NCBI RefSeq assembly: GCF_037042905.1 | Contig: NC_087252.1 | Location: 3,536,001-3,600,000, forward strand | Source of the DNA: Lytechinus pictus | Taxonomy: Eukaryota | DNA: 64,000 nucleotides | Reading direction: 5' to 3' | In this document: in pieces, positions 25,485-51,574 of the stretch | Numbering within the stretch: the first letter of the stretch is position 1 | Layout: each line of letters begins with the position of its first letter | Notes under the pieces: model-generated | The model's input: the letters and a program-made list of their open reading frames with translations, nothing else | What the model was told of the DNA's origin: nothing | The model's database searches: none | Made by a program: the position numbers and the translations under genes

Positions 25485-25499
25485 TGCCCTTACAAAAAT

Positions 25500-26380
25500 G
25501 TCCTGTGGTAATACCATATAATTACCATAGGACTGTACCACACGATTACCACATATATTGTTGTGTGGTAATGCTATGTCTTTATGTCCTGTGGTATTGT
25601 GTGGTAATGTGTGGTAATGTCGTGTGGTATTGTCCTGTGGTAAATTGGAACATTTACCACACAACATTACCACAGGAATACCACATGAATGGATTAATAT
25701 ATGGTAACATTTACCACACAAGGGATTAATTTATGGTAACAATTTTTACCACATACCATTTACCACATAGATTATCACACGACATTTACCACACCATTTA
25801 CCACACACCAGTTACGACATGCATTACCACACACCATTTACCACACAAATTACCTCACATTTTACCACACACCAGTTACCACACGCGTTACCACACATCA
25901 TTTACCACACGAATTACCTCATATTTTACCACATGCCTTACCACACAAATTACCTCACATTTTACCACACACCGGTTACCACACGCGTTACCACACATAA
26001 TTTACCACACAAATTACCTCATATTTTACCACATGCCTTACCACACAAATTACGTCACATTTTACCACACACCGGTTACCACATGCATTACTACACACGA
26101 TTTACCACACACGTTACCACATACACTACCACACACCAGTTACATAACTGGTGTGTGGTAATGCATGTGGTAACTGGTGTGTGGTAAAATATGAGGTAAT
26201 TCGTGTGGTAAATGGTGTGTGGTAAACACTAACCAGTTACCACACATATTGTACATAATACACATAATACCATGCATCAGAGTCATTACCCAAAATGTGT
26301 GTGGTAACTAGATGTGTGATAACTGATGCATGATAATGTATGTTGCAACTGGTGTGTTGCAATGTGTGTGGTAACTGGTT
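25500..26380. repeat. Left subterminal repeat array of element A (TACCACAC, both orientations)
   Basis: Dense TTACCACAC/GTGTGGTAA motifs. Confidence 0.9.
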
Positions 26381-27065
26381 AGATACATCACAGATCATGG
26401 GTATGATTTTGGTAGCAGTAGAATGTGTTCATGACCCTATGTACTTTTATAAGATTAAGAAAATACAACACCTTCAATGAACAGACAACAAATGATTTTA
26501 CAAGTGATATAGAAAGTACTGGTATTTAGCTCATAGAGTCATCAATTTACAATACTGGTTTAGATTTGCTATTGACAAAAATTGTGTAACAGCTGCTTTA
26601 CTGTACAAACAGTGTAACATAATAGTAACTATCAAAGAAATTAGTTACAGTGCATATAAATACTTTTAAAAAAGATACATTTCTTCTAAATACTTTAAAA
26701 AGTTACCTCAAAGGTTATCTGGCTTTTCAGCAAACCAAATTAACGACCATTGTAGTTTTTTTGCAGGTCACACATACAGAATGGACTGATTTACTCTTTG
26801 TTTTATGCTTAAAGACAAAAATGATTAAACTCTTAATCGTTTTTAAGAAAATGAACAAAACATAAGGATGTGTCTACAATAGGTAATATCATATAAGTAG
26901 CTGCGGCAAAGTGCACTGTACTCAAAATTGCGTATAACAAAATGCATAATTATCCCAAGTTTACTTCAAGGCTGAAGGGCAAGTAGAAATAGACGAGAGA
27001 TGATAATATGTATTTGGAGAAAATGAAAACTAGGACAATACCCTGGCATGTAATATCTGAATTAA

Positions 27066-27787
27066 AGGAAAATAACACCCAAAACATAATACCACATGAT
27101 ATTATTGATAAATACAGGACAATCAACATGAATCCACTCATACCCTAATCCAATTACGGAGTACCACCTTTTCAAAGTTGGCCTCTTACAGTATGGTTCG
27201 AAGTTTCTGGATGGAGGTCGCCATTTTCGCGGGGTTAGTTAGGAAATTATTACATCAGCAACGAACTACATCTCTAAACGTTTAGGCATTATATATTCTA
27301 TTTTATCAATAACAAATCAAATGTACAGATAAAACTCATAAAAATATTAGTTAAAATTTGTTTAATATATGGTAGGTTCAAAATACAATTTGATGAGTTT
27401 TAATGATAAGATTTACACCCCAATTTCCGCTGCCAATTTGTAAATCGTAGATTAGGGTGTAATTTTTATCATTAAAACTCATCAAGTCGTAATTTGAACC
27501 TATCATATAATATTAAACAAATTTTAATTAATATTTTATGAGTTTTATCTGTACATTTGATTTATTATCGATGAAATAGAATATATAATGCCCAAACGTT
27601 TAGAGATGTAGTTCGTCGCTGACGGAATAATCCCCATCCATAGACTTTGTACCAGAAGATGCCAACTTTGAAAAGGTGGCACTCCATACTGGGACATCGG
27701 ATTGGGGGTATATGAGTGGATTCATTTTCATTGTCCTGTATTTATCAATGGTATCATGTGGTATTATATTTTGGGTTTTATTTTCCT
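27066..27787. mobile_element. Palindromic Kolobok-like MITE
   Basis: TTAA|AGGAAAATAACACCC...GGGTTTTATTTTTCCT|TTAA; the two halves are inverted copies about a centre near 27435. Confidence 0.85.
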
Positions 27788-27867
27788 TTAAGATATTGTA
27801 CTGGTTTATATCATGGCATTACAAAGTTCATCTGTAGTGCACACTGTGTCAAGTGCACAAACGTATT

Positions 27868-28159
27868 CATGGTTCCCACAAAAATTTGAAAACAGAATTC
27901 CATGACCTCTCCATGACTAAATTGCTGCTTTCCATGACTTAATTCCTTTCTGGCACAGTTTACAAAATCAGACATGTTATGATCATGAACACCAATTATA
28001 ATAGTAGAGTACAATCACAGAGTATGAGAGTTGTGAGACATAAAAAACTAGAAAGCTGTCATAGCCAAGAGGTAAATGCAATTCCGTGACTTTTCACATA
28101 TCCCTGACTTTCCATGACCAATTTTTTTCCAGGATTTTCCATGACTGTGGGAACCCTGT
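27868..28159. mobile_element. hAT-like MITE with CCATGAC subterminal motifs
   Basis: CATGGTTCCCACA...TGTGGGAACCCTG termini. Confidence 0.6.
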
Positions 28160-28444
28160 AATAAAACTGCATTGACAGAGCTCTATCATTTTTAAAGTTA
28201 ATTTCAATTTCCTTCAAACATTTTATTCATCTCTTTTTGGTTGGACCTTGAATATAATACAATACAATGTTTTGGCAGGTCGTCTATAAAAGCATGTACA
28301 TCGTTAAAAAAGGCTTTTGGCAGGAACTTTTGGCAAGTAGTCAACAGTATCAATGCATGTAAATTTGGGTGAAAGAATCATACATGTACATTAATTCTTA
28401 AGAAAAGTTTGTGGTTGTATTACACTATCACTTAAACGTATTAA

Positions 28445-28817
28445 AAAGACAGCAGTTGCAGCAAACAATTATTTCATGAGAAATTGTCAAAATATTGTAC
28501 ATAATCTCTAGATCTGGTACATTAATGTAAGCTTGTATTTTTGTAAAATCACTAATTTTGAACTTAAAATTAATTATTTTGATGATCACTAACACAGAAA
28601 AGAACATGTGGGACAGGACAGTGTATTATGATTGATTTGAAAAATACCTGACATTGGATAGAATTACATGCTTATTTTGCTCATTTCTCAGCAATTACAC
28701 ATTTTCTTCCCGAGCTATAATTAATTATGGCACATGTCTTTTATATTTTGCTGGTAATTCTATTGGATTCTGTTCGAACTCATTTTAAGATTGTTACTAC
28801 AACTGGTAATTTATCTT
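28445..28817. mobile_element. Degenerate Kolobok-like MITE
   Basis: TTAA flanks; CAGTTGCAGCAAACAAT versus ATTGTTACTACAACTG near the two ends. Confidence 0.4.
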
Positions 28818-29559
28818 TAAAGTTGTACTTGTATATGATACGGGCTCAACATAATCTAAAATAAAGTAATTTTTACCATGCAAAATAGTGAAAATTTTAT
28901 CAAAATCAGATAAAATTTTTAAAAAATTAATTACAAAAATATTGGTCATCAACACATGCAAGTAGATACATGTAAGTTTATATGATATCATGCCCACATT
29001 TTTATTGTTCTCATGTTACCAGATAAAATAATAATTTACTTCATGTGTGTAATAAGTATGTCTTCCAATCCCATGTAGCAAAAGAACTTCCAGCAATAAT
29101 CAATACAGGTAAGTCACATCAATACAGTTTACAATCCGATTTGTTTCATTCTTGGTAAACAAAATTAAATGCACAATTTTATATACAAAATAATAAGTTG
29201 GGGATACGTGTACATGTACAATGTACGTCAGTATGACATCATCAGCTTGCTACTTGCATATATGCTTAGAGCTCTTTCACCAAAATAATGCAGAGGTTAG
29301 AATGTCATACATTACTTTATTATCCCTTGTCTAATTTGGATGAATTTTTCAGTTTTGTTAAAAAGTAATAAAAGGCAATATCCATGGTTACCCTTAAACT
29401 TGACCTCAATGCATGTTCGCTTTTACACAACACGTTATTTTGCGAGATACAAAGCGCATGAGATTTAAAAAAATTCAAATTACCAGACAGTGACAGTATT
29501 GTTGTAAGTACAGAGCAAAGATCAGGATGGTAGGTCTTCTCAAATTGTATTTGGATTGA

Positions 29560-29975
29560 TCCAAGGTTGTTGACAACTGGAGGAGAGGAAGGAGCTAATT
29601 CCACGGCCTTGGAGCAGTAGTGGAGAAAGTTGCATCACCAGTAGCTAATTCGTAGGTGCGTAATGATCACAAAAATAAAAAGGCAAGTGCGCCTAGAATG
29701 AAAATGACGCACAAGGGATTCCTTATAAAACATGTAATCTGGATCTCTGTCAATGACTTTGAAAATCAGGAGACGGACACTGATGTTCATGTATATCCTT
29801 TCCTTGACTTGCAGCCAGCGAAGTTGGCGTATGGCAAATGGCACAATAGATGCAGCATTCTGTACTATATGCAGTCAGTCCAGATCGCCCTAATTCAAGC
29901 ACGAAGAGCATTACAATAGTCCAGTTTAGATAGCGCTAAACCATGGACTGCTTTGTGGCAAGTAGAAATATAAAA
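29560..29975 (-). mobile_element. Decayed L2 LINE fragment
   Basis: AVHGLALSKLDYCNAL and RQLRWLQVKERI...LLIFK resemble the L2 motifs SRLDYCN and LHWLPV.RI.FK. Confidence 0.7.
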
Positions 29976-31394
29976 GGCACTTCCCATTGGCCTTTATTCT
30001 TCCAATCTGTTTGATGTTATACTGGTAGGGAGCAGGTTCCAATAGCACTATGAAAGGAGTTACGAAACCAGATGAATGGGTGCAGATTCAGGACACCTTC
30101 CATTTCAACTTAAGGCATCTGCAATAAATAACAGAAGAAGATAAACATAAAAGCCTTTCCTGCATTAACTATTTAATATTCATTAAAAACTACATGGTTT
30201 CAATATCAATTTCCAAACTTTTTAAAAAATGATTAAAAAACAATGTGGGGTTTGTTCCATATTTATACTTCAAATATTAACATGTAAAGTCAGGTCGGGG
30301 GAGGGGGGCTTGATGCCCTCAAGATCTGCTGCACCTCCAAACCATCTCTGTATAGGGAAGGACATTTTAAAGTTTAAAAAAAAATATTTATTTTAATTAA
30401 ACATGATTTTAATTCATGCTTTTTTAAAATGTGTTTTAAATGGTTATGGGATAATTCCATCAGTTTGAATAAGAAATTACAAGTTGCCAATTTCACATAA
30501 CGAAGATCAATTCTGATGTGATAATAAATGCATGTCAGATGTTGATGTTTCACTTATGCCTATCTAATACGTTTGAATTGACAACAGCATGAACCTTGTA
30601 AGGGCATTAATTATTAGACAAGCTTTGTATCAGAGTGGTTACAAAATCAAAATTATTTTACTGCATCTCATGTTCATGCACATGTAAATAATCAAAATAA
30701 CACAATAATTATAAAAAATACCTTCCACAAAGGATAAATTTGTACACACCATTATATCTGCATGAATATTGTTATTTTAGTCCACCTATAATGATACAGC
30801 TGATGAGAGTTTGAATGATGGTATCAAGATGGTGCTTCTACCAGGGCTGCAAAAGAGAGAAAAAAAAATAAAATGTTAACCTCAATCATGCCAAGAAATC
30901 ATGCCAACCGTTGTGAAACTCTATTAGCGCCAAATTACACTCTAAACTTGTCATTAGAACGTCCAAACCGATACACGTCAGCCAGGAATCTAGTACTAGC
31001 ACAATCAGCTATGCATTTGCACCAATTCCCTCTGTATTTTCTTGCATATGGACGTCTCTCGACTTAAAGGTCATGTCATTGTGTTATATAGCTTGGGAAT
31101 TGCAAGCAAGTGATCCTTCGAAATGTTTACCTGCTTAAAAGTAACATTTCTTAAGCCTTAATTTTGTATATTTAGATAACAAAAGGCTTACAAATTGGAA
31201 AAATCAAATGTTTGCCCAAAATTATTGTGGGAAAGGTGGATTTTTTAAGGGAAATCCATCTTTGTGTACCAAGTTCTACAGGCAACAGAGACTTGTCTAG
31301 CTCCGTGAATGAAAATACCCCTTGTACAATGTAAAAATGATAAAAATATCATCACAGAGTCCTCTAGGTACAGTTAGGACCATTGACAGATAAG

Positions 31395-33635
31395 GTGCCC
31401 TAAGATTGCGCACATCCGAATCTGCGCGATTCTGATAATGGAAGATACGCAACGACTCCAAACAAAAAATAAACTTTACACCTGAAAGAGCCTACTGTAC
31501 TTAGTCTTACCTACTGCCCGATGCCTCCTGACATGTAGAGCAACAACAAAGGACCTCCACTCCTGGCGGCCAGTGGTTCTGGGCCGTCTTCTGGAAACTC
31601 CCCCGGGCTAGGTCATATTCACCGACTTCATCTCCTCCTCAAATGTGATGCCAGGACAAGTAGTTTTGGGTCTCCCTCTCTTTCTCCTGGAATGTCATAA
31701 ACAGATCTATTCATAAAAAATCTGACTTAAAATGGTTGGAAAATAATGAATTTAGGGCATTGGCAAGAGTTCCATATGCAACCCCACTAAAATTGAAAAT
31801 AAAAACATGAAGAAGGTTCAGAATAATATATCTAGCACAATATAGAACATATATGATGGGGTAGTGGATAGTACTAGGAGTGGAAATACATACTAAAATA
31901 TGGCTTTATTCCGTCAAATTTCGAGCATGTATGGATGTATCTAGTGTGTGTAATTGTCCATAGACATCGGTTTATTTACTCAAGGGTCTGTGAGTCAAGT
32001 CTAGGCGAACTATTGGCTGATAATCGTTAAAATACCCCTTCCGGCATCAGCACTTCTTGCTAGCATAGCAGGAACAGGTCTTGACTGCAAATAAAACGAG
32101 GTGATCTCAAGTCCCAACTAAGGTGCCAAAACAAGGGTAAAAAAATTATAGAAAAATCTGAAGTGAACGAACTGGAATGGAATTAAGTCTCAACAATCTT
32201 ATTTTTTATCATGTTGGTGGGGGGTACATTGGAATTGCATATGGAATTCTTTCCAGGGCATTTCATGTGACGTCCTCAAAATGCAGCCTCTGTGACTGTG
32301 CTTTCTTATCGAAATCTTCGCATCATGTGAATAAGTGCGCAGACATCGGCCACTATTAGTATTACCCAGTTGTTGTGTGTCCAGACAGGTTGTGTGTCTG
32401 GACGATCAATTTTAGAAAGTCATTTGGAAAAAAAGCAAAGTTCCATCAATTTTTAGTACAAATTATTAGGAAATATTATAAAGAACAAAATAGAAGATGA
32501 TAACAAGTATCGAATTCATATTTTTAGTGTAATCCAAAGATAAAAGGAAGGCTTCAAAAAGATAAAACTGTCCGGACACCCGACCCCCATCCTACCAGCA
32601 ACGTTCTCGCCAGTGTAGAACACGCGTCGCATGCGACACATGTAAATTCCACAAGCTCTATATGCGTCACGGGCAAAAAAAAATCATAAAAAGTGGGGAA
32701 AAGTCATCGGAAATAATTGTTGCATCATTCATCATCAATCCTCAAAAGTAAAGGATGTTTCAGAATCATTTCGGCAACAAACAAACTACGATCTTCTTAT
32801 TGATGACCGGAAAAATATCCATGCATAGAAACTGGCGCATTTCCACTTCCAGCCGGCTAGCCAGCCAGCCAAGCCTGAGCTGAGCAGCCACACTAGCCCG
32901 CGTTGCCAGCGCGCCTAGCTGAGCTGGACATGCATGCTATACGCCACAATGCATGTTAAACTGAATTGTCCGCGGTGCGACCCGGGTCCGACGTAGCCTT
33001 TCATTTTTACATGATAGTGATACCGTTTCCCGATAGTTATCAAGAAATTTTTATCATAAAATGAATTGTTCCACATAATTTTCCCGCTAATTTCTAAGTA
33101 ATATTCTTAACGTTCATTCTCAATTTCTCATGTCATTCTGATCTGCTGTCGGGCTACCGTACCAGTATGATGGTGGGCCCTAAGTCTGCGCACCTAACAA
33201 TTTGAGTTAAGATTTAACATGAATTTCTTCTTATTTCACAAAATCTTTTGGATAATAATGTTCCTTATATTATTGAGAGTAAGTATACCAAATTTCTCAT
33301 TAAAAAATGAAAGAAAATATAGGATTTTCTTGAAAAAACCTTGGGCAGTCATTTTCAGATTGAAAAAAAAAATGGTACCCCATGTCTGCGCACTCATTCA
33401 CTTTGCACACGATTCGGAGATTTTGATGAGAAAGGCTGTATTTTGAGGCCGTCACATGAAATGCCCTGAATTCATTATTTTTTCACCATTTTGAGTCGGA
33501 TTTTTTTATGAATACCTGTCTATGTATTGCATGTGTAAAGTTCGTGCTCGTTGCGTATCTTTTTTTACTAGAATCGCGCAGATACGCGGGTGCGCAGACT
33601 TGGGAGACCGCGCAGACATGGGGGAACTGACCATA
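31395..33635. mobile_element. Long-TIR non-autonomous DNA element inside A
   Basis: Inverted matches: 31395-31435 with 33570-33610, 32255-32290 with 33432-33468, and 32325-32352 with 33380-33402. Ends approximate; no TSD resolved. Confidence 0.65.
31497..31692 (-). mobile_element. RTE-clade LINE 3' fragment
   Basis: PGERERGRPKTT-like...EEEMKSVNMT...RQEWRSFVVALH, typical of the RTE ORF C-terminus, followed by a short TAAG-containing tail. Confidence 0.75.
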
Positions 33636-34009
33636 CCACTAACTTAATAATTTTGTTCAATCAAAATGCAAGTAAATGACCATGACTGGCCGAGATATTT
33701 TCCCAAGAAAATCAATTATTTCTCTTAATTTTTAATGAGACTTTTTGCACACTTACTCATCAGAATACAAGGAACATCATCAATTGAAAGATTTTGTAAA
33801 ATAACAGGAAATTCACGTTAAATCTAAACTCAAATCGTTTAGGTGTGCTGTGACTGTGTGCAGACTTGAGACCACCAGCCAGTGGTCCACATCACAGCAG
33901 CGAGCAGGCGCTCGGGCCCGGCCGAGCGCCCGGTTAGACAGGATGGGATTGCCAGTGTCATGTCATTTTCATTGACGAAATCTTTAGCTAGTTGCAAGCC
34001 GGGGCATTT

Positions 34010-34230
34010 AACAAACTACGAAAAGAAAATCATAGAAAATGGTTATCTAACTTACTGTTTAGCCTACTGCAAATGTCTTCGAAGTCGTCCACATCTAACC
34101 CGCATTCTTTAAGTAGTTGAATTATTAACGGCCTTCTTCGTCCCACTTCTCGATCGAGCTCAATAAACTGCAACGCAACGCAAACGGTATTCTTTTCAAA
34201 TGTTGGCGGTAAGTGCGCATGCGCAAGCCT
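34010..34230 (-). promoter_or_regulatory. Putative promoter and first non-coding exon of element A
   Basis: Palindrome TGCGCATGCGCA (NRF1/P3A2 consensus) at 34214-34225; donor ACA|GTAAGT at 34055; homologous to 42145-42360. Confidence 0.5.
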
Positions 34231-36291
34231 GTCGCCGCCCCCCCCCCCCCCGGCCCCCCCCCCCCAGGGTGACCAGATTTCATAAAATGAAATAAGGGAC
34301 AATCGAAAAAAGATCAACAAAGAAGGCTACACAGTGTTACACCTGTAAAAAACTTTAAAAAATTGGAAGGGAGGGCACAGTGAGCCACTGCAGTTTTTTC
34401 GCCCTTTTTTCGCCGTTTTGTGTGTTATCCCTTATAAAAAAAATTGAATGGTATACCATTGAAATACCATACACCATACACCATTGAAACACCATTGATA
34501 TACCATTGGAATACCATTCGCACAGCACCCATCATACACCAATGGTATACCATTCAAGCCCCAATGGTATACCATTCAAACTAATTTAAATAATTGGGAC
34601 GTTACTATTACCATATTCATGAGCACCATTTACCATTCATATACCATTGATCAAACACCATTCACCATTGATCTACCATGGCCACTATAGACAGGTTTAC
34701 CATTGACCACCATTCAGCCACCATTCACTGGCCTACCATTTACCATTCAGCCACCGTTCACTGGACACCATTGGTCTACCATTCACCTTACACCATTCAC
34801 CATTCGCCTACCATTCACCATACACCGTTGACCTACCATTCACCGTACACCATTCACGTACCATTCACCATACACCATTCGCCTACCATTCACCATACAC
34901 CGTACACCTACCATTCACCGTACACCATTCGCGTACCATTCACCATAAACCATTCGCCTACCATTCATCATACACCGTACACCTACCATTCACCGTACAC
35001 CATTCGCGTACCATTCACCTACCATTCACCATACACCGTTCACCATTGCCCTACCATTCACCATACACCATTGACCTACCATACATTGTACACCATTGGC
35101 CTACCATACACCGCACACCATTGACCTACCATTTACAGTTCACCATTGGCCTACCATACACCATTGACCTACCAATCACCGTACACCATTGGCTTACCAT
35201 ACACCGTTGACCTACCATTTACCGTACACCATTGGCCTACCGTTCACTGTACACCATTGTCATACCATACACTCTATACCATTGGTCAACCATTCAATTT
35301 ACACCATTGGCCATACGTTATAGACCACAAGTGTACTGTGAATGGTAGACCAATGGTTTACACTGAATGATAGACAGTAGACCAAAGGTGTACAATGTAT
35401 AGTAGGCCAATAAAGTACAGTGAATGGTATAGACCAATGGTGAACAGCATATATAGCTCGGGTTAATGGTAGGTTTGATAATGGATTAAGTATGCACAAG
35501 AAAAAAATGATGAAAACAGTTATTTCAAGAACGTCAAATGTTTTTACTATAAGAAGTTTAAGTACAGCATAAATGGAACACAGCATTCACAAGTATAGAC
35601 TTTATAATTAAAGCACATAAGTTATGAATATATATGACTTTGCTCCTTGTTGACATCTATACTCTGTCAATCTTGGTATCTAAAATAAACATGTATCAAG
35701 ACAGAGTTTAATTGAAAAACACAACAAATGAATAACATTTCCAAGAATAAACATGTTCTCTCTGATGGCTTTTTACGTGGATTGAGTACTTGGCAAAACC
35801 ACTGTTCTGCAAACAAACCTGATACTTGTAATACAATAACCTTGATTTTAAATCTGTTGTGTGTAATTGCTTTCACACAGCTACTTCAATGACATTAATA
35901 AAATATTTTTTTTACTAATAAGTTCAAGTACAAAAGAGTGGAACCCAGTATTGACAAGTACATGTATGGCATAAAAGCACCAGCATTATGAATACATGTG
36001 ACTGCACGACTCTACAAGAGGTCAATGATTGCACTCCACATAGATATTATGTTAATCTTCCTATAAACAAATCTAAATGTAAGACAGAGTTTGGACAACA
36101 AACTGATGAACACCAAATTTCGAAGATTAAACTCAAAATGTGTGATAGCCTTCACATGGCCAAATGATTAAAGGTAAAGAGTACCAAACTTAGAGGAAAT
36201 AAATATCCCCAAAAGGGGGGAAAATAGTACCCCCATAAAAATATAACCTAATATTTCTCTATTTTCTTTTCACCTAAAAGATATATCAAAC

Positions 36292-36860
36292 GGCGTGTTT
36301 CTACATAGAATCGTTAAAAGGTATTACCCGCGTAAGTATCCAGAATCCCGGAAAACTTTCCTGTAGAATTTTGTAGAAACAGACGCGATGCGGTTTATTG
36401 ATAAACTGCTTCAAGCAAAATATGGTTTCTCATAACCATCTCTGAGAGGTGGTTATTGCCATGTTAATCCGTTTAACTTTTCTGTAAAAACACACGGCAA
36501 AATAGCGTATCGTGTCTGGCGGAAGTGCTTAATCCCAAAAGTGCAATTTCGCAGTACATAAATTTGCACATTCTGGCCTTTTCGATCTCGCCAGCTGATC
36601 ATGCAACACGTATACCTGCTACATTGAGTGAGATCTACCACAAATTATGAAAATTTTCCTAAGAAGATGCAATTTTGGACATATGTACAATGCAACGTGA
36701 GGTTATAGGTTGAATTTTCCGATTTCCGCCGTATTTGCAATGCGAAAAGCGAGTTAATCAGATTATTCGGTTTGTAGAAGCAGGTTGGTTTAAGGGCGAT
36801 AAGGTTTTTCGAGTCCAGAAAAGATAAATCCTTTTTAATGATTTTCTGTAGAAACATGCC
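36292..36860. mobile_element. MITE, Harbinger-like
   Basis: GGCGTGTTTCTACATAGAATCGTTAAAAGG versus the reverse complement of the right end, GGCATGTTTCTACAGAAAATCATTAAAAAGG. Confidence 0.7.
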
Positions 36861-37894
36861 AAAAGTTTATCATAAATACATTAAAGATACATAAAGGAAT
36901 AAATAATATCTATATCAAAAATAGAATATATAGAATAATAAAGAATATATCATGAAAATAGAAAAAAAACAAGAAAAATAGCGACATCTTTTTTTAATAT
37001 TTTGCAAATCATATAGAAAATAATTCTTAGTAGCACATCTATTTTTTAACTATTTCCCATAGTTCAAATATACAAGATTCCCACTTATTTATTTTTTGTC
37101 TATTTTTTTGTTGTGTTGAATCAGATGAATAACTCAACTATGTGTGAGAAATAATATAATTTTTGTCTTACACAGTATATCAGTAGTCAATCGTAATTTT
37201 TTACAACCTAGCTTGGACAAAATTTGAATTCATATAATACAAAAAAATATATAAATTGGGATCTTGTATATTCATGAGGACTTGCAGAGAACAGTTTTAC
37301 CAAAAAATAACAACTTTAATTCGTCATAATTTCGTTAATCCTCATTCAATTTTGATGAAATTTTCAGTGTTTTTTTTTGTCTGATGTACTCTTTGAATTT
37401 AAATCACATAACTTTCAGTCTAGAGTACCTAGCCCTTCAATCAAATGGGTTGGACGACCGGTTACATTTTACATATAACATAGTAGAATGAAGGGTCCAT
37501 AGAAAGAAAGCATGAGGAAAGGGGAGATTTAGGTAGGAAGAGAATTAATCAGAAAAGCATAATGTTGACAATTTCGTTAAAATCTGATAACAAAGTCTTT
37601 GATTTGAAGGTTTAGCAACATTTTGGGAAAAATTACTGGAATGTGCACATGATCGTCAGGAATATGTGTTAGGCTTATGTTATAAAATGAAATCATAATA
37701 ATTTCATATTTTCGTACACGTGTGTATGATATGTCCCACGTAGCATAAAATGATTTCAAGCAATGCATGTGTTTACATTAAATAAATCTTCACTTCACTT
37801 TTTAGTTCTTGGAGGTCAAAATGTGAATAAACATGACTTCTTGTTATAAAATACAAAAGAACAAGTGGGAGTATGACATCAGCTTGTTAACTGT

Positions 37895-38010
37895 GGGTGC
37901 GTCGTGGTCTAGTGGTTCTGACTCTCACCTTTCAACAGAGTGTCGTGGGTTTGAATCCTAGCAATGGTGTTTTCCTTCAGAAACTGCGTACCCGGCAAGA
38001 TTAATTTCTT
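37895..38010 (+). mobile_element. tRNA-derived SINE head (truncated)
   Basis: GCGTCGTGGTCTAGTGGTTCTGACTCTC...GGTTTGAATCC, similar to the SINE at 24012. Confidence 0.65.
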
Positions 38011-38546
38011 GCAGCTGTAATAAGGAATATGGGATGAAAACAATGCAAAGGACAGTATGTCAGCTACGGGTTCAAAACATCAATGCTTGTCGTGCGTGCA
38101 AGCTTTCTTGAGAAATTGATATATTTTTCTAAAATATCGAGAAATTTGCATAATACACTACCCTTCAATTGAATAGTACCAATTAACAAATATCAACAAA
38201 ACATTTTGTACAATATAATAAAGAAATTCATGTTTAACCATAGATTAGCAGAAAATAACCCGTTATATTAATGGGAGGTTGCCCAAATGATGACAAATAC
38301 CATACCACATGCATACCTGGGGCCAAAGTGTCCACCCCCCCCCCGCCAGCATATTGATTTTTTTCCAGGGGGGGGTGTTAGAAAGGACGTGTAATCCTAT
38401 AAATGGGGATGACATTTGGTCTTTTTCAGCATTTTTACCATTCCTCACAAGTTGTTTTTTCAGCTATGCCACTGCAGGAGTACAATCTGTTTTATTTAAT
38501 GAAGCTTTGCAATTTTTTCCACTGAAGTGAATTCTTACACAATTAC

Positions 38547-38663
38547 CTTTCACAAACTCCAGTTGTTTTCTTGTAAACGGTTTTCTGTGTTCAACACCTG
38601 TATTTTCCTTCCCAGATAATCCTGGACCATCTACATTATCATCCAGTGTATCCGTCGTCCAAT
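38547..38663 (-). CDS. Putative internal coding exon of element C, product unknown
   Basis: TTTCATTTAAG acceptor, AAAG|GTAATT donor, 117 nt, phase 1-1, open frame WTTDTLDDNVDGPGLSGKENTGVEHRKPFTRKQLEFVK. Confidence 0.35.
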
Positions 38664-39180
38664 CTTAAATGAAATAAAATCAATTTGAGTGTTGGAAAAT
38701 ATGCATGTGCAGATAAAAACAAAAATATAATACTAATATAGTAAAACTTTCTTTAAGCTCCAAAATGCAATGATTCACTCATATACAGCATCATGATAAT
38801 TTTTATTTCAACATATGCAGCAAATTCACTTGAAAATATGTTTGAAATTGATGTCACAGAAATAAAATTCCCCCACCAAAGATTTTCTGTGTGACGTGTG
38901 TGTGCATGCTGGAAATATATAGATCAATATAACACAGTTACTCTGCTGCGTAACGTGTTTTGATCAGCAATCATGTAGATATGCAAGAGAAAATTATCTA
39001 ATAGAAAAAGAATGATCTGAAGTCATATTTCCAGAGCAGCAGTTTTCAAAAGGTAGGCCTAATCAATTAATTGATAACATTCAATATGATTTTCTTTTCT
39101 TGGTATTGACAATCACAGTAACGGATCCAGATGGGCACAATTGACCTGTGCCCCCCCCCCCCCTTGAGAGCAATAGTCAA

Positions 39181-39606
39181 TGGCCCGAATTCAAAAAGGT
39201 GGTTTTGAAAACCCCGGTTGAGTCTATGTTTTATGGAGATTTCCTGTATAAATTAAGCTTATTTACAGCGTATATCAAAATATGTCCAATGTTGATGCGC
39301 GCTTTTGTCACAGTGCGCCAAATTGACGCCTGTTGCCGTGGTTATCCACGCTATTTTAATCACGAGTCCACTGTTTTGAATTAATGAGTCCACTCTTCAA
39401 ACAGTGGACTCATGAATAAAATAGCATATCTAACCATGGTAACAGGCGTCAATTTGGCGCACTGCGACAAAAGCGCGCATCAGAATTGGACATTTTTTAT
39501 ACACGCGCCAGATACGTGCTAAATTAAGCGTAATTTATACAGGAAATCTGCATACACCATGGACTCAACCGTGGGTTTTCAAAACCACCTTTGTGAATTC
39601 GGGCCT
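39181..39606. mobile_element. Palindromic PIF/Harbinger-like MITE
   Basis: GGCCCGAATTCAAAAAGGTGGTTTTGAAAACCC...GGGTTTTCAAAACCACCTTTGTGAATTCGGGCC; inverted over almost its whole length. Confidence 0.85.
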
Positions 39607-39689
39607 ATGTGTTTAATGTAAATATGGCGTCTTTACACAAGTGTGTCCCTCCTTTTGAAAGTTACAGCAAATATTTCTAACGGAAATAT

Positions 39690-39865
39690 ATACCGTGTTT
39701 ACACTTAATCGGCTTTTTCATAACGTGTAAAACACGATTAACTTGCATCGGCTCGCGGTTCAGAATCAGCAATTTGCACCACCAAAGTAGTAGGTTCAGA
39801 ACCGCGAGCCGATGCAGAATCGGCTTTTTTACTACGTGTAAACAGAAAGCCGATTCTGCATCTGC
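39690..39865. mobile_element. Small inverted-repeat element
   Basis: TGCATCGGCTCGCGGTTC / GAACCGCGAGCCGATGCA and CGTGTTTACAC / CGTGTAAAC inverted pairs. Confidence 0.55.
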
Positions 39866-42144
39866 AATTGGTGCGCATTTCATTTACTTTACCATTGTGA
39901 CATAATTGTAAGCGCACGGATCCAGCGTTGTCTTTATTATGGCGTATTTTGTTGGTCAATACACAGGTCAATACACAGTATGCCCACCATTTTTCCAAAC
40001 ATCACGATCGGGAACGGCGGTATTTTGGCTCCATTCCCGATATTATCGTAATGGTGGGAGCCATGCCGGGGTGGAATTCAGAGACCAGTGAGTTGGGGGG
40101 ATTTTCCCCAGGCCAAGCCGGTCCGGGTTGAGAGCCAAAACAGCGAAGATCAGAAGCTGTTATGTCTCCGAAAAATACCAAATAAATACCAAGATAATGT
40201 GACCATTTACCACTATTCATGAACCAAGCTCATCTATTTTCTCGAATAATCTAACTTAATTCATCCTTTACATGAATTTCAGCCACTTTGAGCAGTGGAA
40301 ACAGCATTATTTTAGCTTTGATCTCGACGTCTTAGTTAAAATTCTTAGTCAGATTTTGCCAAACGAACGCAGAGGGCAGCAACACTGTTGACTTCATGTT
40401 TGCGCGTTGTAATCGCTAACTTCAGCAAATATCCAAATAAATATACGGTGGAGTGAGACCCTAAATCTGATAACTCGAATGATGAAATCATGGTGGAAGC
40501 CGGAATAAAGATGTTCCTGATGCTCAGTGAATTGATTCGGACAAATATTTAGGTTAAATTAGTTCGCTAACATCGCAGGGTACGAAAGTGCATTAGGGAT
40601 TAGCGGGGCCAGGTTTTTCTTAGGGCTGCAGCAGCGGTGTTGAGCGGTGGCTCCGAGTTCCGGGCCGATCCAGGACCCAGAATTTTTTTTGCTAAACCTT
40701 CCGGTCCGGGCTCAAGCCAGGTTATCTTTGCGGGCCCCAACATTAAACACTACGTTATCGTTCAAATTCTCAGTCAGACATCACTTTGCTTGGCTTTGCC
40801 ATTATTTATAAGGACTGAAGTTAGCGACCAAAAGATTTGCCTGCGGCAGTTTGCATGATTTGGTTACGAACTTCAGTCCATATCAAAATTACGGCAAAGC
40901 AACGCATGAGGATTCAAACAATGACGTAGAGATCGAAGCCGATAAACAGCTGTTCCCGATATTCGGAAAAGCGGTGGGCATATGGACATTCAAATGCAAT
41001 TCAGACTTGATATGACATTTGAGAACAACATTTGGTGGTGAATTTTGCTCGAAGTTGGTCGGTGCGAAATTAGCGCCCAATCCCACGGAAAAATCCCAAG
41101 GAAAAAATTCAGAAATTGTGATTTTAGTCAGCTGGCATGGCTGAGTTCAGATTAGTATAGGCCCTTTTTTGGGGGGGATACATTTACATATACTATGTAA
41201 ACTACGAATTTTGTTTACAAACGTCAAAAACTATGCCAATTTTTATATTTGAACAAATTATATCGTATTCATATGTAATAAATATTCTAAAAAACCTTAG
41301 GCCTAACCAAGAAGAAAATATCACATAACTCACAAATACCAAATCCCGCCATGTTTTCAGAACACTTCTTGATTTATCATGGAATATTTCTCTGCCTCAA
41401 TTGCTAAAATATGTTAATTCCAAACAGTTGTAGGTTTTCTCTGAATAATTGCAGTTTCTCTAGAAAGATTGAATAGGAATCGTTTGTCACTCTCTCCAGT
41501 CACAGTTCCGCAGACAAAGTGCACATTTTACCATTGAAATTGCATGCGCAATAAGTGGTGCGTAGCTTTTTAGGGCCTGCGTAGCCTTTAATGCTTTATT
41601 TTATGTTTTAAAATTTAGGACACCTTACCATGTTTCACCTTAATACTACCATGTCCATGTCATCTTAATTTACCAACATTATCTACCAACAACAACAAAT
41701 TATAGGCCTCATTCCAGAGCAATATTTTTCGGCAAGGTTTCCATTTCAGTGAAACAATGTCAATGTTGTGCAGTAACCAATGGCCTAATTGACACTTTGA
41801 CACTCAATGTCATGACAGTACTGCACTGTACAGCATTAATTTAACAAGTCATTCATTCATAAATTCATACCGCCGATATTCAGAGATGGTTTTGTAAAAC
41901 ATTGAAAATAGATATCAGGCCATACTAGCGAATTACTACTCAATGACAATAATGCTCGGCTCAGCTCACCTCAGCCTATACAAAGCATATTAACGCACCC
42001 CATAATCCATTTCGCCAGAGACAGGCGTGTCCCGGCCCGCGCCAACGGGGCAGTGGCGGTACGGTGGCAGTGAAACCCCGTGGCAGTACAACGACATCTA
42101 ACAGTAACACTAACGGTAACATTCTAGAAAATCAGGCCGAGCCA

Positions 42145-42365
42145 CTAACTACGAAAACAATATCAAAGAAAATTGTTATCTAACTTACTGTTTAGCGTAT
42201 TCTGCGAATGAATTTGAAGTCGTTGTCCGAATCTGACCTGTGTTCCTTTAGTTTATGATGAATTATAGACGGACTTCTGAACAGCAAAACAGTGGTTGAT
42301 CGGGTTCTTTTTTCAAATATTGCAATTGGCGGTTACATGCGTACGTGCGCGCGCGCGTGCGAGAA
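42145..42365 (-). promoter_or_regulatory. Putative promoter and first non-coding exon of element C
   Basis: Shares GTTATCTAACTTACTGTTTAGC and flanking blocks with 34010-34230; GC repeat upstream; donor at 42188. Confidence 0.5.
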
Positions 42366-43235
42366 CAATACTTACATACATAGAGCGAGCTAGCTAGCAG
42401 CGCAGCCAACACATCCCGATATTGGGGGGGGGGTAAATCAAGACCAAATCAGGGGGAGGGGGCTTCTTAGCCAAGATACATCCCGATATGGGGGAGGAGT
42501 GAATTGCATGTATAAGACCAAATCAGGGGTGTCTTTTTCTTGATTGGTTCTGGGTTGGCAATTAACCATGCAGTCAATTTTTGCCACTGCTTATCCTTTG
42601 AAAGGATCTATGAAAAAAGTAATTTTGCTCAATTTTTTTCTGTTCTATAATTCCATGTCTTTCTTTTTTTTCTTTCCATTGTCTTTTTTTTCTTTTTCCT
42701 TCTTTTTTTCTGTTCAGTCTTTCTTCTTTTCTTTGTCTTGGTCTTTTTCTTTTCTTTTTTTAAATTTATTTTTCTGTTTTTCGATATATATATTTTTTAC
42801 TTATTTCTTTTTTTCCTTTTCTCTCTTTGTTTAATTTCGCTTTTGTTTTGATTGCAATTGAGAATTTCGTTCATTAGATTTTTTTCTGTAACATATTGTA
42901 CTAGCCTGGCGGCAGGGAATTTTGATATACTGGGGGGGGGGGCAAGACAATAACAGACAAATCATTTCAATTAAGCAAGTAATGATCGGCCTAGAATAGC
43001 TCTCCTCTTTATAAACACCATCCATGAGTGAGAAAAAATAATTAAAACACAATTTGTAAAGAAAAAAAAAGAGGAACGGTTTATGATCAAAAGCAGTAGT
43101 AGCGATATATAAATTGGCCGGGAGGGGGCTTTGGTCGTTGCAGACCAAAATCAGGGTTTGCCGATGGGAATTTCAATAGGGGTTGGGGGAGGAAGACAAC
43201 CAACAGTGAATTCATTTTAAGCAAAATAATGACCT

Positions 43236-43452
43236 ATGGGACATTGCAAGAAACTTGCAATTGAACGCAAGTCAATTTCAAACTCCAAAATCAATTGAAA
43301 GTCTTACTTTTCATTGCAAACTTGCAACTGATTTATTGTTTCTTCCATCAATAAATCTAAAAATTGGTTTACTTTAGATGAAATTAGTCTATCACTTGTA
43401 AATTTGCAACCGAATTTTGGGATTGACTGCAAATATTTCCTTGCAACACCCC
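43236..43452. mobile_element. Harbinger-like MITE
   Basis: GGGACATTGCAAGAAA...TTCCTTGCAACACCCC termini. Confidence 0.55.
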
Positions 43453-46400
43453 ATAGCTCTCTTTATAAAAAGTGGCCATAATTAAATAAGAAAATTAATT
43501 TAAAAATAGAACAAAACTTTAAAGAAGGGGGGGGGGCGTTACATAAAAAAACTGTATACCGTACAGATAGGAGAGGTGGTGTGCCGTTCAAATTATACCA
43601 AGAAACAAAAAGAGAAAAGAAAGGATGGTGAAATGTACAATTTTCTATTTAGTACGATACACATCTTGTTCATGCTCTTTAAAACTTGCATGTTTTAATT
43701 TCAAGATTTTTACGGTAAATGATGATTATATTCTTCCCTTTCGGGAGCGGCTGTGAAATAATTTGTCCGTTGATATTAAGGTACAATAAAATCCTTTTTA
43801 TCAAATAAGATTTCATTGACTCCTTTTATTTTTGCACTCAATGCATCAGATATAAATTTAGAAGGTAATATGTACAATTGTAAAATATAACAAATTAATA
43901 GTATTGTATTTTAAGCACTGGTTCAATGATATTTAAACACATATAGGCCTTTTACTTAATAAAGACAAAGACAATTTAAAAGAATGCAACAGACCATGTT
44001 TGCCATCATGAGCGAATGGGCCTGATTTGGGGAAGCTGCTCGCATAAAAGTCACAACTCAAAAATTTTAATAATTCTAATTTTTAATCTTTGATTTTTTT
44101 TTCTTTAAATCTTCGGAATTATGTTATTGGGTAATGCAATTGGGCATACCATTCACCATTAACATAAATAGCATTCATTAGGCACACACCGCTAAGCCAC
44201 AATTGCGTTACAATTATCCAACAACTATCCATTAATTATACCACTATATAGGCACATGCTACTGAGACACCATATTGGGCATATGGTATACCATTACACA
44301 TATACCACTGAGACTATTGGACACCACTGAGACACCATTGGGTTTATGGTATACCATTCACCATACCAATCATATCATTATAGAGGCACATACTACTGAG
44401 ACACCATTGAATACGACTGAGACACCATTGGGTATATGGTATACCATTCACCATACCAATCATACCATTAGAGGCACATATACTACTGAGAGTCTGAGAC
44501 ACCATTGTATACCACTGAGACACCATTGGGTATGGTATACCATTCATCATACCAATCATACCATTAGAGGCACATACTACTGAGACACCATTGTATACCA
44601 CTGAGACACCATTGGTATATGGTATACCATTCACCATACAAATCATACCATTAGAGGCACATACTACTGAGACACCATTGAATACCACTGAGACACCATT
44701 GGGTATATGGTATACCATTCATCATACCAATCATACCATTAGAGGCACATACTACTGAGACACCATTGTACACCACTGAGACACCATTGGGTATGGTATA
44801 CCATTCATCATACCAATCATACCATTAGACACATACCACTGAGACACCATTGGGTATATGGTATACCATTTACCATTAAATAAACTACCAATTACCATTA
44901 AGAACTTACCATTGAAACACCACTTAAATACCATTCGCGTACCATTTACCATTCAGATCACCATTCAACTACCATAAACTACCACTTACCATTAAGAACT
45001 TACCATTGAAACACCAATTAAATACCATTCGCGTACCATTTACCATTCAGATCACCATTCAACTACCATTCGCCACCATTCAAATACCATTGGCGATTTT
45101 TATAAGGGATAACCTATGGGAAATTCAAAGTTGCAGTTTTTTCGCCGTTTTGAAAACGGCTAGAAAAGGGCGAAGAAAGGGAGAATTTTTGGAGAAAAAA
45201 CGGCCAAAAAACGGCTACATTAGGTTTCCTATGTAAACATTGAATTATTATGGAGTGCCATCATTGTTCAATATAAGCGGAGCTATTGATTTCCCCATGA
45301 AAACGGCGAGAAAACGGCGAATGTTAAGGACAAGGATCCTGTTAGAGGAGTGAAGATACTGAGAGAAAACGGCTAATAAACGGAGAGAAAAGGGCTAGAA
45401 AACGGAGACAAAAGGGCGAATGGGTAGTAAGGTGTGTGTTGCATAAAAGGGAGAGAAAAGGGCGAGAAAACGGAGACAAAAGGGCGAATGGGTATAAGGC
45501 GTGCAGTGCATAAACGGAGAGAAAATTGTGAATGGGTCCCAAGGAGTGCATTGCTCGAAAGGGAGAGAAAGTGGCGGGACAACGGAGAGAAAAGGGCAGA
45601 TGAGTAGTAAGAGGTGAGAGCATGAAACAGAAAAAAAGGTTAGAAAAAAAAAGAAAAGGGCGAATGGGTAGTACGAAGTGCATTGCATAAAATGGCAAAA
45701 AGAAATGTGAAAATGCGCGATATGCATTGAGAAAAAGTGACTATAAAACGTAGAATATATATTTGCAATTTTTCTGCCAACTTAAGATTTTCTGAAGAAC
45801 TCCTTTTGGAAATAAGCTCTAGTTTTCATGGGTAATATTTATTAATAATTCTCATTTCATTCATGTAAACAATTTTGTATATTACTTCCGGGGGGGGGTT
45901 ACGCCTTCTTTCATAAATCTTATTTACATATTGTATAGGCCTACTACATTAATTGTTTTATTTCAACATTTTTTATATTTCATGTGGAATTTGATAAAAT
46001 GTCAATCAGATGAAAATAAAATTTAATTGAATTGGATTGAAACTTCTTTGAATACTTTATTTTTTACTCTTATTTTCCCTTCTTCATGGGCGGGAACCCG
46101 AGGGGGACGTGTCCCTCACTTTTTGGAAAGGGGGGCATAATATCAAATCCCCCTCTACTATTTGTGGTCTTTTATGATGGAGAACAATAAATCATTCAAA
46201 GTCGAATGTAGTTAAAGAGCTTAAATTTGCCCTATTTACTAAAAAAATGCAAAATTTCTCACGCCGAATATTGGCACGCAGGTTGTCAGGGAAGTAATCT
46301 ACAAAATTGTATCGTAATTTGTTTCATGCAAATCGCTATTAAGTAATTATGCTAATTCATGCGTAATTAGTAGGCAAAATCATACTTTTTCCTCTAACTC

Positions 46401-49184
46401 CCTTTATAAAGTTTAGAATGTTCTATTTTTTTTTTGTATAAGAACTCTTTGTCTACATGAACAAAATTGTGATATCAGATCAATTTCTTATGTCTTATTG
46501 TTTTTTGCAATTCCGTATGTATTTCTTTTGTTTTTTACTTTTTGTTTTTCATTATTTTTTCAATTAAATTTGTTTGGGACTCTTCTGACAGAGCTGCCAA
46601 CCGTAACGTTTTTTTGTTTTTTCAGCTTTTGTTTTGAGTGAAAATAAGTCTTCTCGTGTTCGCACCGATAACAAGAAGACAAGACAATGGGAATAGAGAT
46701 GGTGTGATGCCGCGATGTTCATTTTATTAAAGTTTGACAATGTTTCACCTTCAAATTTTATTTGTTTCTAAAACATTTTAGTTTTCTAACAATTTTTAAA
46801 TATATTATAAAAAAGACAAATATCAGTAAGATTTTTTTGTTAGATGATTACATTTGTTTTGTTTGCTTGAAGCTTAAATTTTTGTTTCCTCTGTAATTCT
46901 TTCTTCATTTCTTTCTTTATTGCTTTCTTTCGTTCATTTTCTTTCTTTTCTATCTTTTTTCTTCATCCTTTCTTCTATCCTTCCTGCTTGTTTTTTTTTG
47001 TTCTATCTTATTTCAAATCTTTCCTAGCTTTCTTTCCTGATCCTTTTTTTCTTCCCTTCCTTCCTTTTCTTACTTTCCTTTTATTTCCTTTCTTCTTTCT
47101 TTCCTTATTTTCTTTTTGGTTCCCTTCCTCTCCTCTTCTCTTTTCATTCTTTCTGTCATTCCATCCTTTCTTTCATTCTTTTCTTGCTTTCACTCTCGCA
47201 TGATAATGCGAAAGGCACTTTTCATGTTCCTGATGCTGCAGTCACATTTCCACTACCGCGGCTATGGCGAGTCGAAAACAGCCGTTTTATTAATGTGTAG
47301 ATGGTACAAAAAAGTCTTAACGGATGTTTTTGACCCGCCATAATTAAGGGAAATGTGACTGGGCCATTGGTCATGTAAGTAGTATCCAACAAACCACTTC
47401 GATATATTTTAATTCTTGGGGAGGCATACATCAGCCTCCATGATGTCATGAGCTGGTTCGATCTCGTTGATATATTGGTCAAAACTGTGTTTTATAGTGT
47501 TAAAATGCACGTGAGCTACTTCGTTTTATAGGAAAGATAACTTTTAAAATGTATAACAGAAGCTTTGGAGTGAATGCCCTAGCTGCATGTTGCGACTTCA
47601 ATGGGGTCAATTAATTACACGTCTCGCACGTTTTGTGAACAATGGAAGGTGTGAATGAAGGTGTGAAGATTGCAGTGAACACCTAACAATAGGAAGAATC
47701 TGTTTCAATTTAAGTTACGCAATGATCACTTGTGATCTCTCGTTGTGTTTCTTCAACCCGGATGAATCCCCCAAACCACATTGTCCAATCACGGACCTAC
47801 TACAATAGTCAGCGTTTGTGAAAACGGAATGATAATCGAGGATGATAGTGTATTTTTGATGTAATTAAATAATGATAGTGGTGATAATGAAGGGGGATAA
47901 AGAGGAAGAAGAGGACGAGAATGATGGTGGTGGTAATGATTTTGATGGCGGTGATGATGATGACGATAACATAATTATTTTTTTTCTTGATAAACATATT
48001 GTGTGTGTAAATTTATAAAAAAGGAGGAAATTTTCTTTTTAAGAATTATGATATAAAAAGGACAAAGGACAAAGAAAAAAGATTAGACTTATATTATAAT
48101 TTCTGAAACAACTGGGTCTGGAAAAAAGACTTTTTCTCGAAAGGGTGCGGCCATTCCCACTTCGCAAACGCAAACGATCGTAACAAGCCCAAGATAAAGA
48201 AAATAATACAGTACAGTATAATTGAATACATTTAGCACATTGCAGCATCTTTCCAAGAGAAAAATGATGAAAAAAAAATCATATTTATGAAGTATCAATT
48301 TTCTAAACATAACAAAATACGGTGAAAATGAATTAATTATAGATTTTTGTTAATTCTCTTATGACAGCAGAAAACACGTGTTTGGTATACGAACCACAAG
48401 TGACAAAAGATTTCACACGCGAAGAGGGGCGAAATCGGAAGCTGATAATTTTTTTTTCAGATATAGGCCGATTGATTTCAGCCATTTTAAAATTCTTATT
48501 TTTAGTAGGTATATGTGATTACTTTATGGTGGAATTTTGATGAATTTTAAGAATAAGTTTGATATGATTGATGATTGAAAAAAACTGAAGATTGTTCGGT
48601 ATTATACACTACCATACATTACGGTAGTATGGATGTTATTCCAAGTTGTCTCAAGTACATGCACTCACCCGCTTGTGTGGTACAACATTATTGCTGATTT
48701 GTACTTGTTTAGTCCTATTTATTACTAGTTTTATTACTTTTTTGTGCCTTTCGTCATTTATTAGCAGTTTTGAAGGTTTTTTTTACCGATGGGGGTATTC
48801 ACCCTTATATTAGCCGTTTTGTAGCCGTTTTCCACAAGGGAGGTATTCGCCCTTCATTAGCCGTTTTGTAGCCGTTTTCCACAAGGAAGGTATTCGCCAT
48901 TTATTAGCCGTTTTGTAGCCGTTTCCCACAATGGAGGTATTCGCCCTTTATTAGCCGTTTTGTAGCCGTTTTCTCGAAGGGAGGTATTCACTATTTTATT
49001 CTGATGAAAATCATTGTTGCATACAGTTAGCTTTCCATAGTCGGTACACTTTTTTTGTCGCCGTTTTTTAGCCGTTTTCTAGCCCTTTTCTAGCCGTTTC
49101 CTATTGGGAAAAAGGGAGAAAAAACGGAGAAAAAACAGAGAAAAAACGGCGAATCACCCAAACCAGTCTGGCTCACTGTGGGGT

Positions 49185-49875
49185 GAACGAAAGAATGAAG
49201 GAAAGAAAGAAAAGGCGGAAGAAAAGAGATGAAAAGAGAAGAAAAAAAATTAATGAAGGAAAAAATAAAAAAAGAATAAAAGAAAGTTAGAATAAAAAAG
49301 AGAAAAAAAGTTTCCGCCATTCTTTGAATTTAATACAGAAAGAGAGAAAAAGAAAGAAATGGAAGAAGAATACATGTGTGAAAGACAAAATAAAGGAGAG
49401 AAAGAAAAAAAGTAAGAAAAAGGAGGAGGAAAGAAAGAATGAAGGAAAGAAAAATGTTTTCTTCATTCTTTGAAAGAAAGAAACAAAGAAAGAAGGAAAC
49501 AGTAAGGGAGGAGGGAAGGAAGAAATTAAGGGAGGGAGAGAAATAATAAGGGAAAGAATTATAAGGAAAAATAAAATAAAGAATGAAAGAAAGAGAGGGA
49601 GGAAGAATGAAGTGAGGAAGGAGTGAAAACATAATGGAAGTAGAGAAAGAATTAAAATAAAAAGGAGAGGAAGGGAGGGGAAGAAAAAAGTTGAAAGAAA
49701 GAATGGAGGAAATAAAAAAAGGAAATTTGATAAAGAAGACGGGTAAGAAAAAGGGAGGAAAAAAATGAACACAGAGAGAGAGAAAGGATCAGGAAAGGCA
49801 AATAGGAAATAGAGATAGATGGAACAAAAACGGGCAAGCAGGAAGGATAGAAGGATGAAGAAAGAAGGATAGAAA
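49185..49875. repeat. Polypurine (GA-rich) low-complexity tract inside the hAT element
   Basis: Almost only A and G; explains the Phe/Leu/Ser-rich minus-strand ORFs. Confidence 0.9.
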
Positions 49876-50589
49876 AGTTCAAACTTCAAGCAAAAAATTC
49901 CAATCATCTAACAAAAATCATAATGATATTTGGTGTTTTTAAAATATATTTTTAAAAAATGTTTTAGAAATGAATAAAATTTCAAAGTGATTCTTTTTTT
50001 ACTTAAAAATTAGATGAAACATCGCGGCATTATATAGAACAAGACTCAAAACGAAAGTTGAAACAACTAGATCTAGTTATGAAAACTCAATAACTTGTTC
50101 CTCCGATTACATCCCCAAATCAGTAATCTGAGAACCCATAATATAATTATACAAATTTCCCGCCGATTTTGTGATTATTTTGGCATGTTTCATTGTGTTT
50201 GGTGTAGAGAATCTGCTCCGATCCTACATGCCTTGCTAGTACTAGCCTGTCACACAAAGGCAGGAGGCCAGTTCGATTGGGTTAGCAAGAAAATCACCTT
50301 GCAAAAGTTTATTTATCGATTTTATTGTTGTCTCTGCTTCGTCATCTGTTGGTTATTTTAATGAAAATTCGTCACTTTTAAATATATTTTGTTCAATATT
50401 CTGAAATACGGGACAAATAGGCGTCCCGGGAAGGGTTTGTCGGGACGCCGGGACAAAGAAGCAAAATACGGGACAATCCCGGGAAATACGGAACGTCTGG
50501 TCACCCTGCCCCCCCTCCGGCGAATCAATTTTTAATTTTGATAGGGGGTGAGCTGAGGGGGGTCTAAGTTATGGGTGTGAAAACTTTTT

Positions 50590-51560: not shown

Positions 51561-51574
51561 CATTTTCGTAAGGG

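Follow-up and report, generated by a model that had tools for sequence, protein, structure and literature searches.

Animal TRC/CACTA elements of the CMC-EnSpm group (SmTRC1 and the TRCs of Tribolium and Aedes) have CCC termini and 2-bp target-site duplications (TSDs) (PMC1636069). In the maize En/Spm system, TnpA binds the subterminal repeats and TnpD the terminal inverted repeats (TIRs) (stated in PMC5105172); the definition of subterminal arrays used here was taken from PMC8978399. For Pack-CACTA1a of Arabidopsis, a hybrid origin has been proposed from two adjacent inserts that lost their inner ends (PMC6379663). Here, we describe two elements of this kind, designated A and C, which lie in a stretch of 64,000 nucleotides of the Lytechinus pictus genome (NC_087252.1, positions 3,536,001 to 3,600,000, forward strand; hereafter the window) and share a short internal module.

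We propose, with slightly better than even confidence, that A and C share a first exon that is spliced, apparently non-coding and equipped with a likely promoter, and that it belongs to an old passenger cassette around which the ends of other EnSpm families were wrapped time and again, so that transposase-less elements with at least six end types now carry it. An initial annotation of the window had described A and C as large transposase-less CMC/EnSpm-type elements, which was borne out (CCC…GGG ends, 2-bp TSDs, no transposase match). It had also viewed them as one family whose subterminal arrays diverged in place; this part was not supported, since a single interior spans unrelated ends, the breakpoints are sharp and old ends are preserved as fossils.

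The module shared by elements A and C

Element A (25487-51574 including nested inserts; TIR CCCTTAC, TSD TG) would measure ~9.7 kb without its interruption. Element C (34429-45108) has the TIR CCCTTATAAAAA, the TSD AT and ACCATT arrays at both ends. Both are young non-autonomous CMC/EnSpm elements of 10-11 kb with a 2-bp TSD. The CCC…GGG terminal inverted repeats of the window copies and their subterminal arrays, in which short motifs run in either orientation, are features of CMC/EnSpm elements. Both start with CCCTTA and carry unlike arrays, as noted initially: TACCACA occurs 42 and 57 times at the two ends of A, and ACCATT 55 and 40 times at those of C, the two motifs having a TACCA core in common. 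In the 812-Mb genome, A-type and C-type modules are each represented by at least 40 scored copies at 90-100%. Of 20 A and C copies fetched whole, 15 had both ends in view, of the CCC…GGG type, and a 2-bp TSD was found in 5/7 (A) and 7/8 (C).

The module of A (34010-34232, minus strand) comprises the start of an intron, a donor after position 34056, exon 1 (covered by reads to ~34150-34195) and the sequence GCGCATGCGC at 34215-34224, which we take to be an NRF1-like site. That of C (42145-42360, minus strand) has a predicted donor after 42189. The two segments do align in blocks: a blastn comparison of whole A with whole C yielded one match of 135 bp at 80% (E 1e-26), the remaining two both being weak (E 8e-4). 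A local alignment of the modules scored 66, compared to a maximum of 16 among 1000 shuffles; 3 of 990 random window pairs also reached 66, the window containing satellite arrays. The best block spans a minus-strand GTAAGT donor and includes an identical 22-mer (34042-34063 and 42175-42196), in which the last exon bases are 34056 (A) and 42189 (C) and the minus-strand junction reads ACA/GTAAGT in both. The GCGC-rich motifs said to precede the modules were found upstream on the minus strand, the one in A being GCGCATGCGC. In uninterrupted copies of A, the module is ~1.1-1.6 kb from the right end. One correction concerns the motif ATAAGGG at 34292-34298, which is not the A terminus: it belongs to a CAGGGTGACCAG-ended insert (34265-50508). 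The right end of the window copy lies at 51574, 17.5 kb from the module.

Distribution of the module among element families

The core 15-mer of the module has 156 exact matches genome-wide, compared to 6 for a reversed control. All of the 100 matches listed were assigned to terminal-repeat families (D, 40; A, 29; C, 20; F, 8; and one each in G, H and E), 30 by flank blast, 40 by fetching and 30 by coordinate match, and a right TIR was found within 4 kb in 35 of 40 fetched loci. Judged by these listed matches, the module is not the independent dispersed repeat that would have spoken against the initial annotation; two copies, K and L013, show no intact end. The expectation that the matches would lie inside CCCTTA-ended elements held for just 49 of the 100; half of the listed matches fall in CCCTGAT-ended elements.

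The module was found under at least six types of end: A, C, D, E, I and N. D has CCCTGATAGCAG ends, ACGTCAT arrays and a 2-bp TSD in 3/3 cases, while E is represented by one copy with a CTACTAGGG end and AAAAATAG arrays. I (8.1 kb, 51 pattern matches), with CCCAGGT ends, an AACTGGT motif and a 2-bp TSD in two of three cases (one end is truncated), was reached via loose ends of reads. So was K, an old single-locus module copy (L283:1400-1800) beside a AAAAATAG arm. N was reached by a TIR search and not by the module; the two copies fetched (11.7-12 kb) both have a TSD, and N contains the module (nhmmer E 6e-29). A plexin PSI-domain exon is located 3.6 kb left of the E module (L141:6131-6349), and the E copy may be truncated and located in a host plexin gene.

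Eight other CCCTTA look-alikes were fetched: five had no array, two were partial A copies, and one was a 675-bp element (L263:1024-1698; TSD TT) made solely of A-type TIRs and TACCACA repeats. The 97 open reading frames (ORFs) of A and C and the 37 of D gave no Pfam match above the cut-off, transposase included, and tblastn with the EnSpm transposases of the genome found no match in copies of A, C, D and E. These elements are therefore considered non-autonomous.

Evidence for a probable replacement of ends

D-type TIRs bound F at both ends in seven of the eight copies fetched (in the eighth, the right end alone is visible), with a TSD in 6/7. The interior of F is nevertheless 77-92%, mostly 84-92%, identical to that of A, and 74-84% identical to that of D, except in the D left arm and in one short block of 89-90%. 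A diverges abruptly from F and H at positions 28363 and 50563. Its left arm (25487-28362), consisting of the TIR, a TACCACA array (to ~26380) and filler, is absent from F and D, while the interior cassette (28363-34264, minus strand), whose left breakpoint lies at ATTTGGG, is common to the D-ended F and H (84-92%) and to D (~80%). On the other side, the right part of A (50509-51574) contains a shared GATAGGGGGTGAGCTGAG motif that runs to the breakpoint at 50563, beyond which the TACCACA array and TIR follow. In a tree of the module, A groups with F, G and H at 95/92, separately from D.

A decayed right end of E type was found inside two other families. The terminal 160 bp of E align 2.2 kb inside I (score of 120.5; shuffle maximum, 45.5) and 2.4 kb inside N (95.5 vs 43), in the latter case finishing on GGG, and shorter fragments of the E arm are retained in D, F and H. 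The arms of N are 72-85% identical to those of the autonomous element T8 (C8:25607893-25635502; 27.6 kb, TSD AA), which has an open 836-aa transposase frame and no match to the module. Taken together, an A interior ~10% from that of F under unrelated ends, the sharp breakpoints and the fossil ends indicate that ends were likely replaced rather than having drifted. I and N give good support to serial re-wrapping, and for A it is likely; the difference between A and F could also have arisen by homologous exchange between related elements.

At one locus (C6:8346300-8352300), a D element ends ~850 bp inside an N/T8-type TIR, at C6:8350292. This arrangement is possibly a nesting able to seed a new wrapping.

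Transcription, splicing and coding potential

Three raw RNA runs chosen by species label (X9, X10 and X11) and one contig set (X1), whose kind was guessed to be RNA, were used. The interval 33930-34231 is covered by 85 reads in X9 and by 25 and 91 in the other runs, with several families mixed. First mates lie mostly on the plus strand in X9 and X11; in usual stranded libraries this means minus-strand RNA. Those of X10 are mostly opposite and match K. Intron 1 of A (31687-34055, minus strand) has GT..AG borders, and loose read ends at 34055 match sequence ending at 31686. The A/F-type junction from 34056 to 31686 was found in one X1 contig, which matches the window subfamily exactly, and in 8 of the 85 X9 reads, which match the F_C7 subfamily. 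Splicing at the 34056 donor, as predicted initially, was thus observed, and with this junction the transcribed and spliced interior that is typical of Pack-CACTA and Tpn1 elements. Read depth fades at 34150-34195 with no pile-up of ends called, which is compatible with the proposed start, though not a mapping of the transcription start site.

Exon 2 (31511-31686, minus strand) has an acceptor at 31687 defined by spliced reads and a predicted donor at 31510, and is alignable also in D, F, H and I. A likeness to the 3' end of a long interspersed nuclear element was unsupported: the homolog search returned nothing at E<=1, Atlas returned nothing, and there was no local support. The block 29600-30120 gave one weak local match (E 0.002).

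In the most open frame of the module, changes are distributed over the three codon positions as 22/19/23. The frame is shifted in C and I and carries a stop in D, and the spliced A product has stops in every frame. With no third-position excess and no kept frame, the module was rejected as a coding exon, and the first exon is apparently non-coding. In most pairs, identity within the core of the module exceeds that of linked remnants by ~0-6 points, and in the pair E-N by up to 17. Constraint on the module is therefore weak: of the constrained transcription unit postulated initially, what remains is an advantage of a few points in most pairs, with no coding pattern.

Autonomous elements and candidate partners

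The genome contains 12 matches to PF02992. Elements T13, T19 and T8 have CCC…GGG ends, 2-bp TSDs and arrays of their own. Upstream of the transposase, T13, T1 and T19 have a CpG-rich region from which a second gene, which is spliced, extends leftward, and the second genes of T13 and T14 encode a BEN domain above the cut-off. Autonomous EnSpm elements here have a head-to-head layout, with the transposase on one side of a CpG-rich region and a spliced gene for a BEN-domain protein on the other; loci of this layout are C13 28.96-28.98 Mb, C14 1.49-1.50 Mb, C1 26.46 Mb and C19 0.51-0.53 Mb. A CACTCACTCAC-ended stretch of 9.8-16.7 kb (TSD AT) overlaps the transposase region in T1 (L196/L175) and T21 (L197/L177).

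T8 scored 29.5 bits against PF02992 in one search and 27 bits in another, and its leftward first exon has no match to the BEN genes of T13, T1 or T19. In the search for autonomous partners by TIR, suggested at the outset, T8 matched N well and A in part, and none was found for C, D or E. To judge from these similarities, T8 is a candidate partner of A. I and T19 are alike in TIR and motif only, with no blastn match. Four longer A copies (15.6-39 kb) were fetched as potential autonomous partners; their extra length is due to nested inserts alone, with no transposase match.

No module was found near EnSpm transposases in 10 loci, in 9 extended transposase loci (best E 0.033), in 6 further loci (best E 0.33) or in full T8. 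A derivation of the module, or of the interiors of A, C, D and E, from a BEN helper gene was also rejected, as no helper-gene exon matched.

Proposed explanation and alternatives

The cassette may have originated as the promoter-bearing end of an E-type element, with its AAAAATAG array. Re-wrapping would take place when two copies of another family insert on either side, lose their inner ends and move all that lies between as a unit; by analogy, the Pack-CACTA hybrid route would be the simplest path. A different autonomous partner would then act on each new shell, through its transposase and its helper that binds DNA (in T13/T14, a protein with a BEN domain), and the passenger would swap its helper whenever its ends change. 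The most speculative step is that a CpG-rich promoter, ~1-3.5 kb inside the right end, might keep this end open or unmethylated and so favour mobilisation. Such an effect would account for the persistence of the module in elements much of whose interior is replaced over time; this mobility benefit is the least supported part of the proposal. The usual view is that non-autonomous DNA transposons become extinct once their autonomous partner is gone. That a transposase-less promoter cassette could be a second-order parasite, outliving the extinction of its helper families by gaining complete ends from one EnSpm family after another, with the promoter licensing mobilisation of the shell that holds it, is an idea we put forward tentatively.

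A number of observations weigh against repeated re-wrapping of a promoter cassette. In an approximately unbiased (AU) test on the short module alignment, a single D-ended clade was not rejected (p 0.1). A fossil E terminus was not found in A, C, D, F or T8, nor a fossil left end in any element compared, and for E itself, a single copy, no left end was found within 30 kb. T8 and A share the first 12 TIR bases, with an array aligning at only 66-70%, and C, D and E have no autonomous partner among the elements found. As regards the promoter, RNA levels are low, most reads run unspliced across the donor, and no spliced reads are among those listed for X10 or X11. In the window copy of A, a 16-kb insert separates the promoter from the right arm; the same CAGGGTGACCAGA-ended insert recurs in a short form at 13 of 30 A loci, among them young copies that are nearly identical, so that tight spacing between promoter and end is not required. 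The core is only slightly better conserved than linked remnants and had been picked as the best block. Finally, D, E, F, G, H, I and K were all found through the module, and its retention is in part a matter of ascertainment.

Several of these points would also be expected if re-wrapping is real and the module a neutral hitchhiker that lay beside an ancestral right end and travelled with it, its transcription being leftover noise, a reading we regard as less likely. It would accommodate the low, mostly unspliced RNA, the lack of a coding signal and the discovery of most families via the module itself, and also the closeness of module identity to that of linked remnants (F-I, 73.0 vs 72.6; E-I, 74.0 vs 71.5; A-D, 85.7 vs 80-87). 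However, the donor region and exon core persist in nine lineages, whereas, to their left, the interiors of A, C, E and N mostly cannot be aligned with one another. N, found independently of the module, has it too; A kept it though the E/D arm was lost; and the A-type donor is in use.

It is improbable that the module descends, in decayed form, from the first coding exon of an EnSpm helper gene, or that a functional regulatory RNA starts with it. The leftward gene that autonomous elements possess (with BEN in T13/T14) issues from a central CpG-rich region and has the same orientation relative to the right arm as the module, and in several lineages one frame is free of stops in its final 20-30 codons; against this stand the even codon-position changes, the lack of a Pfam domain in the ORFs of A, C and D, the lack of any helper-gene exon matching A, C, D or E, and the lack of the module in 15 transposase loci and full T8. 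Least probable of all, and strongly disfavoured, is descent from one ancestral family in which TIRs and arrays changed in place along with the transposases while the transcription unit stayed under constraint: A, C, N and T8 do share CCCTTAYAAAAA and the TACCA core, which relates their shells, and the AU result would allow it, but A and F are ~10% apart inside, their TIRs and motifs are nevertheless unrelated and the junctions are sharp, old ends survive inside I and N, and non-autonomous elements cannot change their motif without changing partner, the autonomous T8 lacking the module.

Nested inserts and the interrupted P450 exon

In the window, C is nested in a CACAGTG-ended insert (34376-49180), itself within the CAGGGTGACCAGA-ended insert (34265-50508; 13-bp TIR), which in turn lies in A between promoter and right arm. 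The outer insert, which we take to be hAT-like, is fixed in its short form just upstream of the promoter in a young A subfamily; a poly-C stretch occupies 34233-34265. The CACAGTG…CACTGTG element, seen in one of 30 A loci (the window copy alone), has GCCGTTTT-type arrays at both ends and a 3-bp GGG duplication. Its ends presumably equal the heptamer of a recombination signal sequence, but the duplication is not of 5 bp.

A is inserted in a coding exon that belongs to a cytochrome P450 gene of the host (51575-51793, minus strand; PF00067) and resumes left of 25487, with a further stretch at 24480-24625. The P450 allele split by A is likely disrupted, and the elements are thus mutagenic. Elsewhere in the window, 194-bp satellite arrays (52389-54262 and 58501-59485) lie inside a foldback-like element.

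Comparison with known systems

Among the literature covered, which was limited, we found no report of EnSpm end replacement, of one passenger under many EnSpm end systems or of EnSpm with BEN; this is a weak negative. If the proposal is true, one passenger lineage under six end systems, with old ends fossilised in new ones, would represent escape by helper switching. With matched shells that have or lack the module, and with T8 as candidate partner, it can be tested directly whether a transposase-less element becomes more mobile through an internal promoter. For annotation, families defined by interior similarity and families defined by ends disagree.

The animal TRCs resemble A and C in their CCC termini and 2-bp TSD, and the TIR of the Tribolium TRC starts with CCCTAGTAG, like the inferred E end (PMC1636069). 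Unlike them, A and C lack a transposase, and one interior occurs under several unrelated end types. The TIRs and subterminal arrays recall the two-protein maize En/Spm system (PMC5105172), but here the transposase is head to head with a BEN-domain gene, whose binding of the arrays is hypothetical. The zebrafish EnSpm-N49/N49B is likewise an animal non-autonomous CMC-EnSpm hybrid with a 2-bp TSD that out-amplified its parents (PMC13189230). It differs in its size of 2.5 kb, its CAC ends and its origin as a hybrid of two named relatives, and the available text describes neither a shared promoter nor a switch between unrelated end systems. Pack-CACTA1a is also non-autonomous and carries a passenger promoter and exons (PMC6379663). 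In our elements, no host gene fragment and no Pfam domain was found in the interior, no search for a single-copy host source having been made. Moreover, Pack-CACTA1a has one shell around varied host DNA, whereas here a single passenger, probably derived from a transposon end, occurs in many shells and an old end is kept inside. In Ipomoea nil, the Tpn1 family consists of large CACTA elements that are non-autonomous and whose interiors have been substituted and are partly transcribed; their autonomous partners are few (PMC5105172). There, conserved ends enclose variable interiors; in Lytechinus pictus the reverse is seen, a shared interior under six end types.

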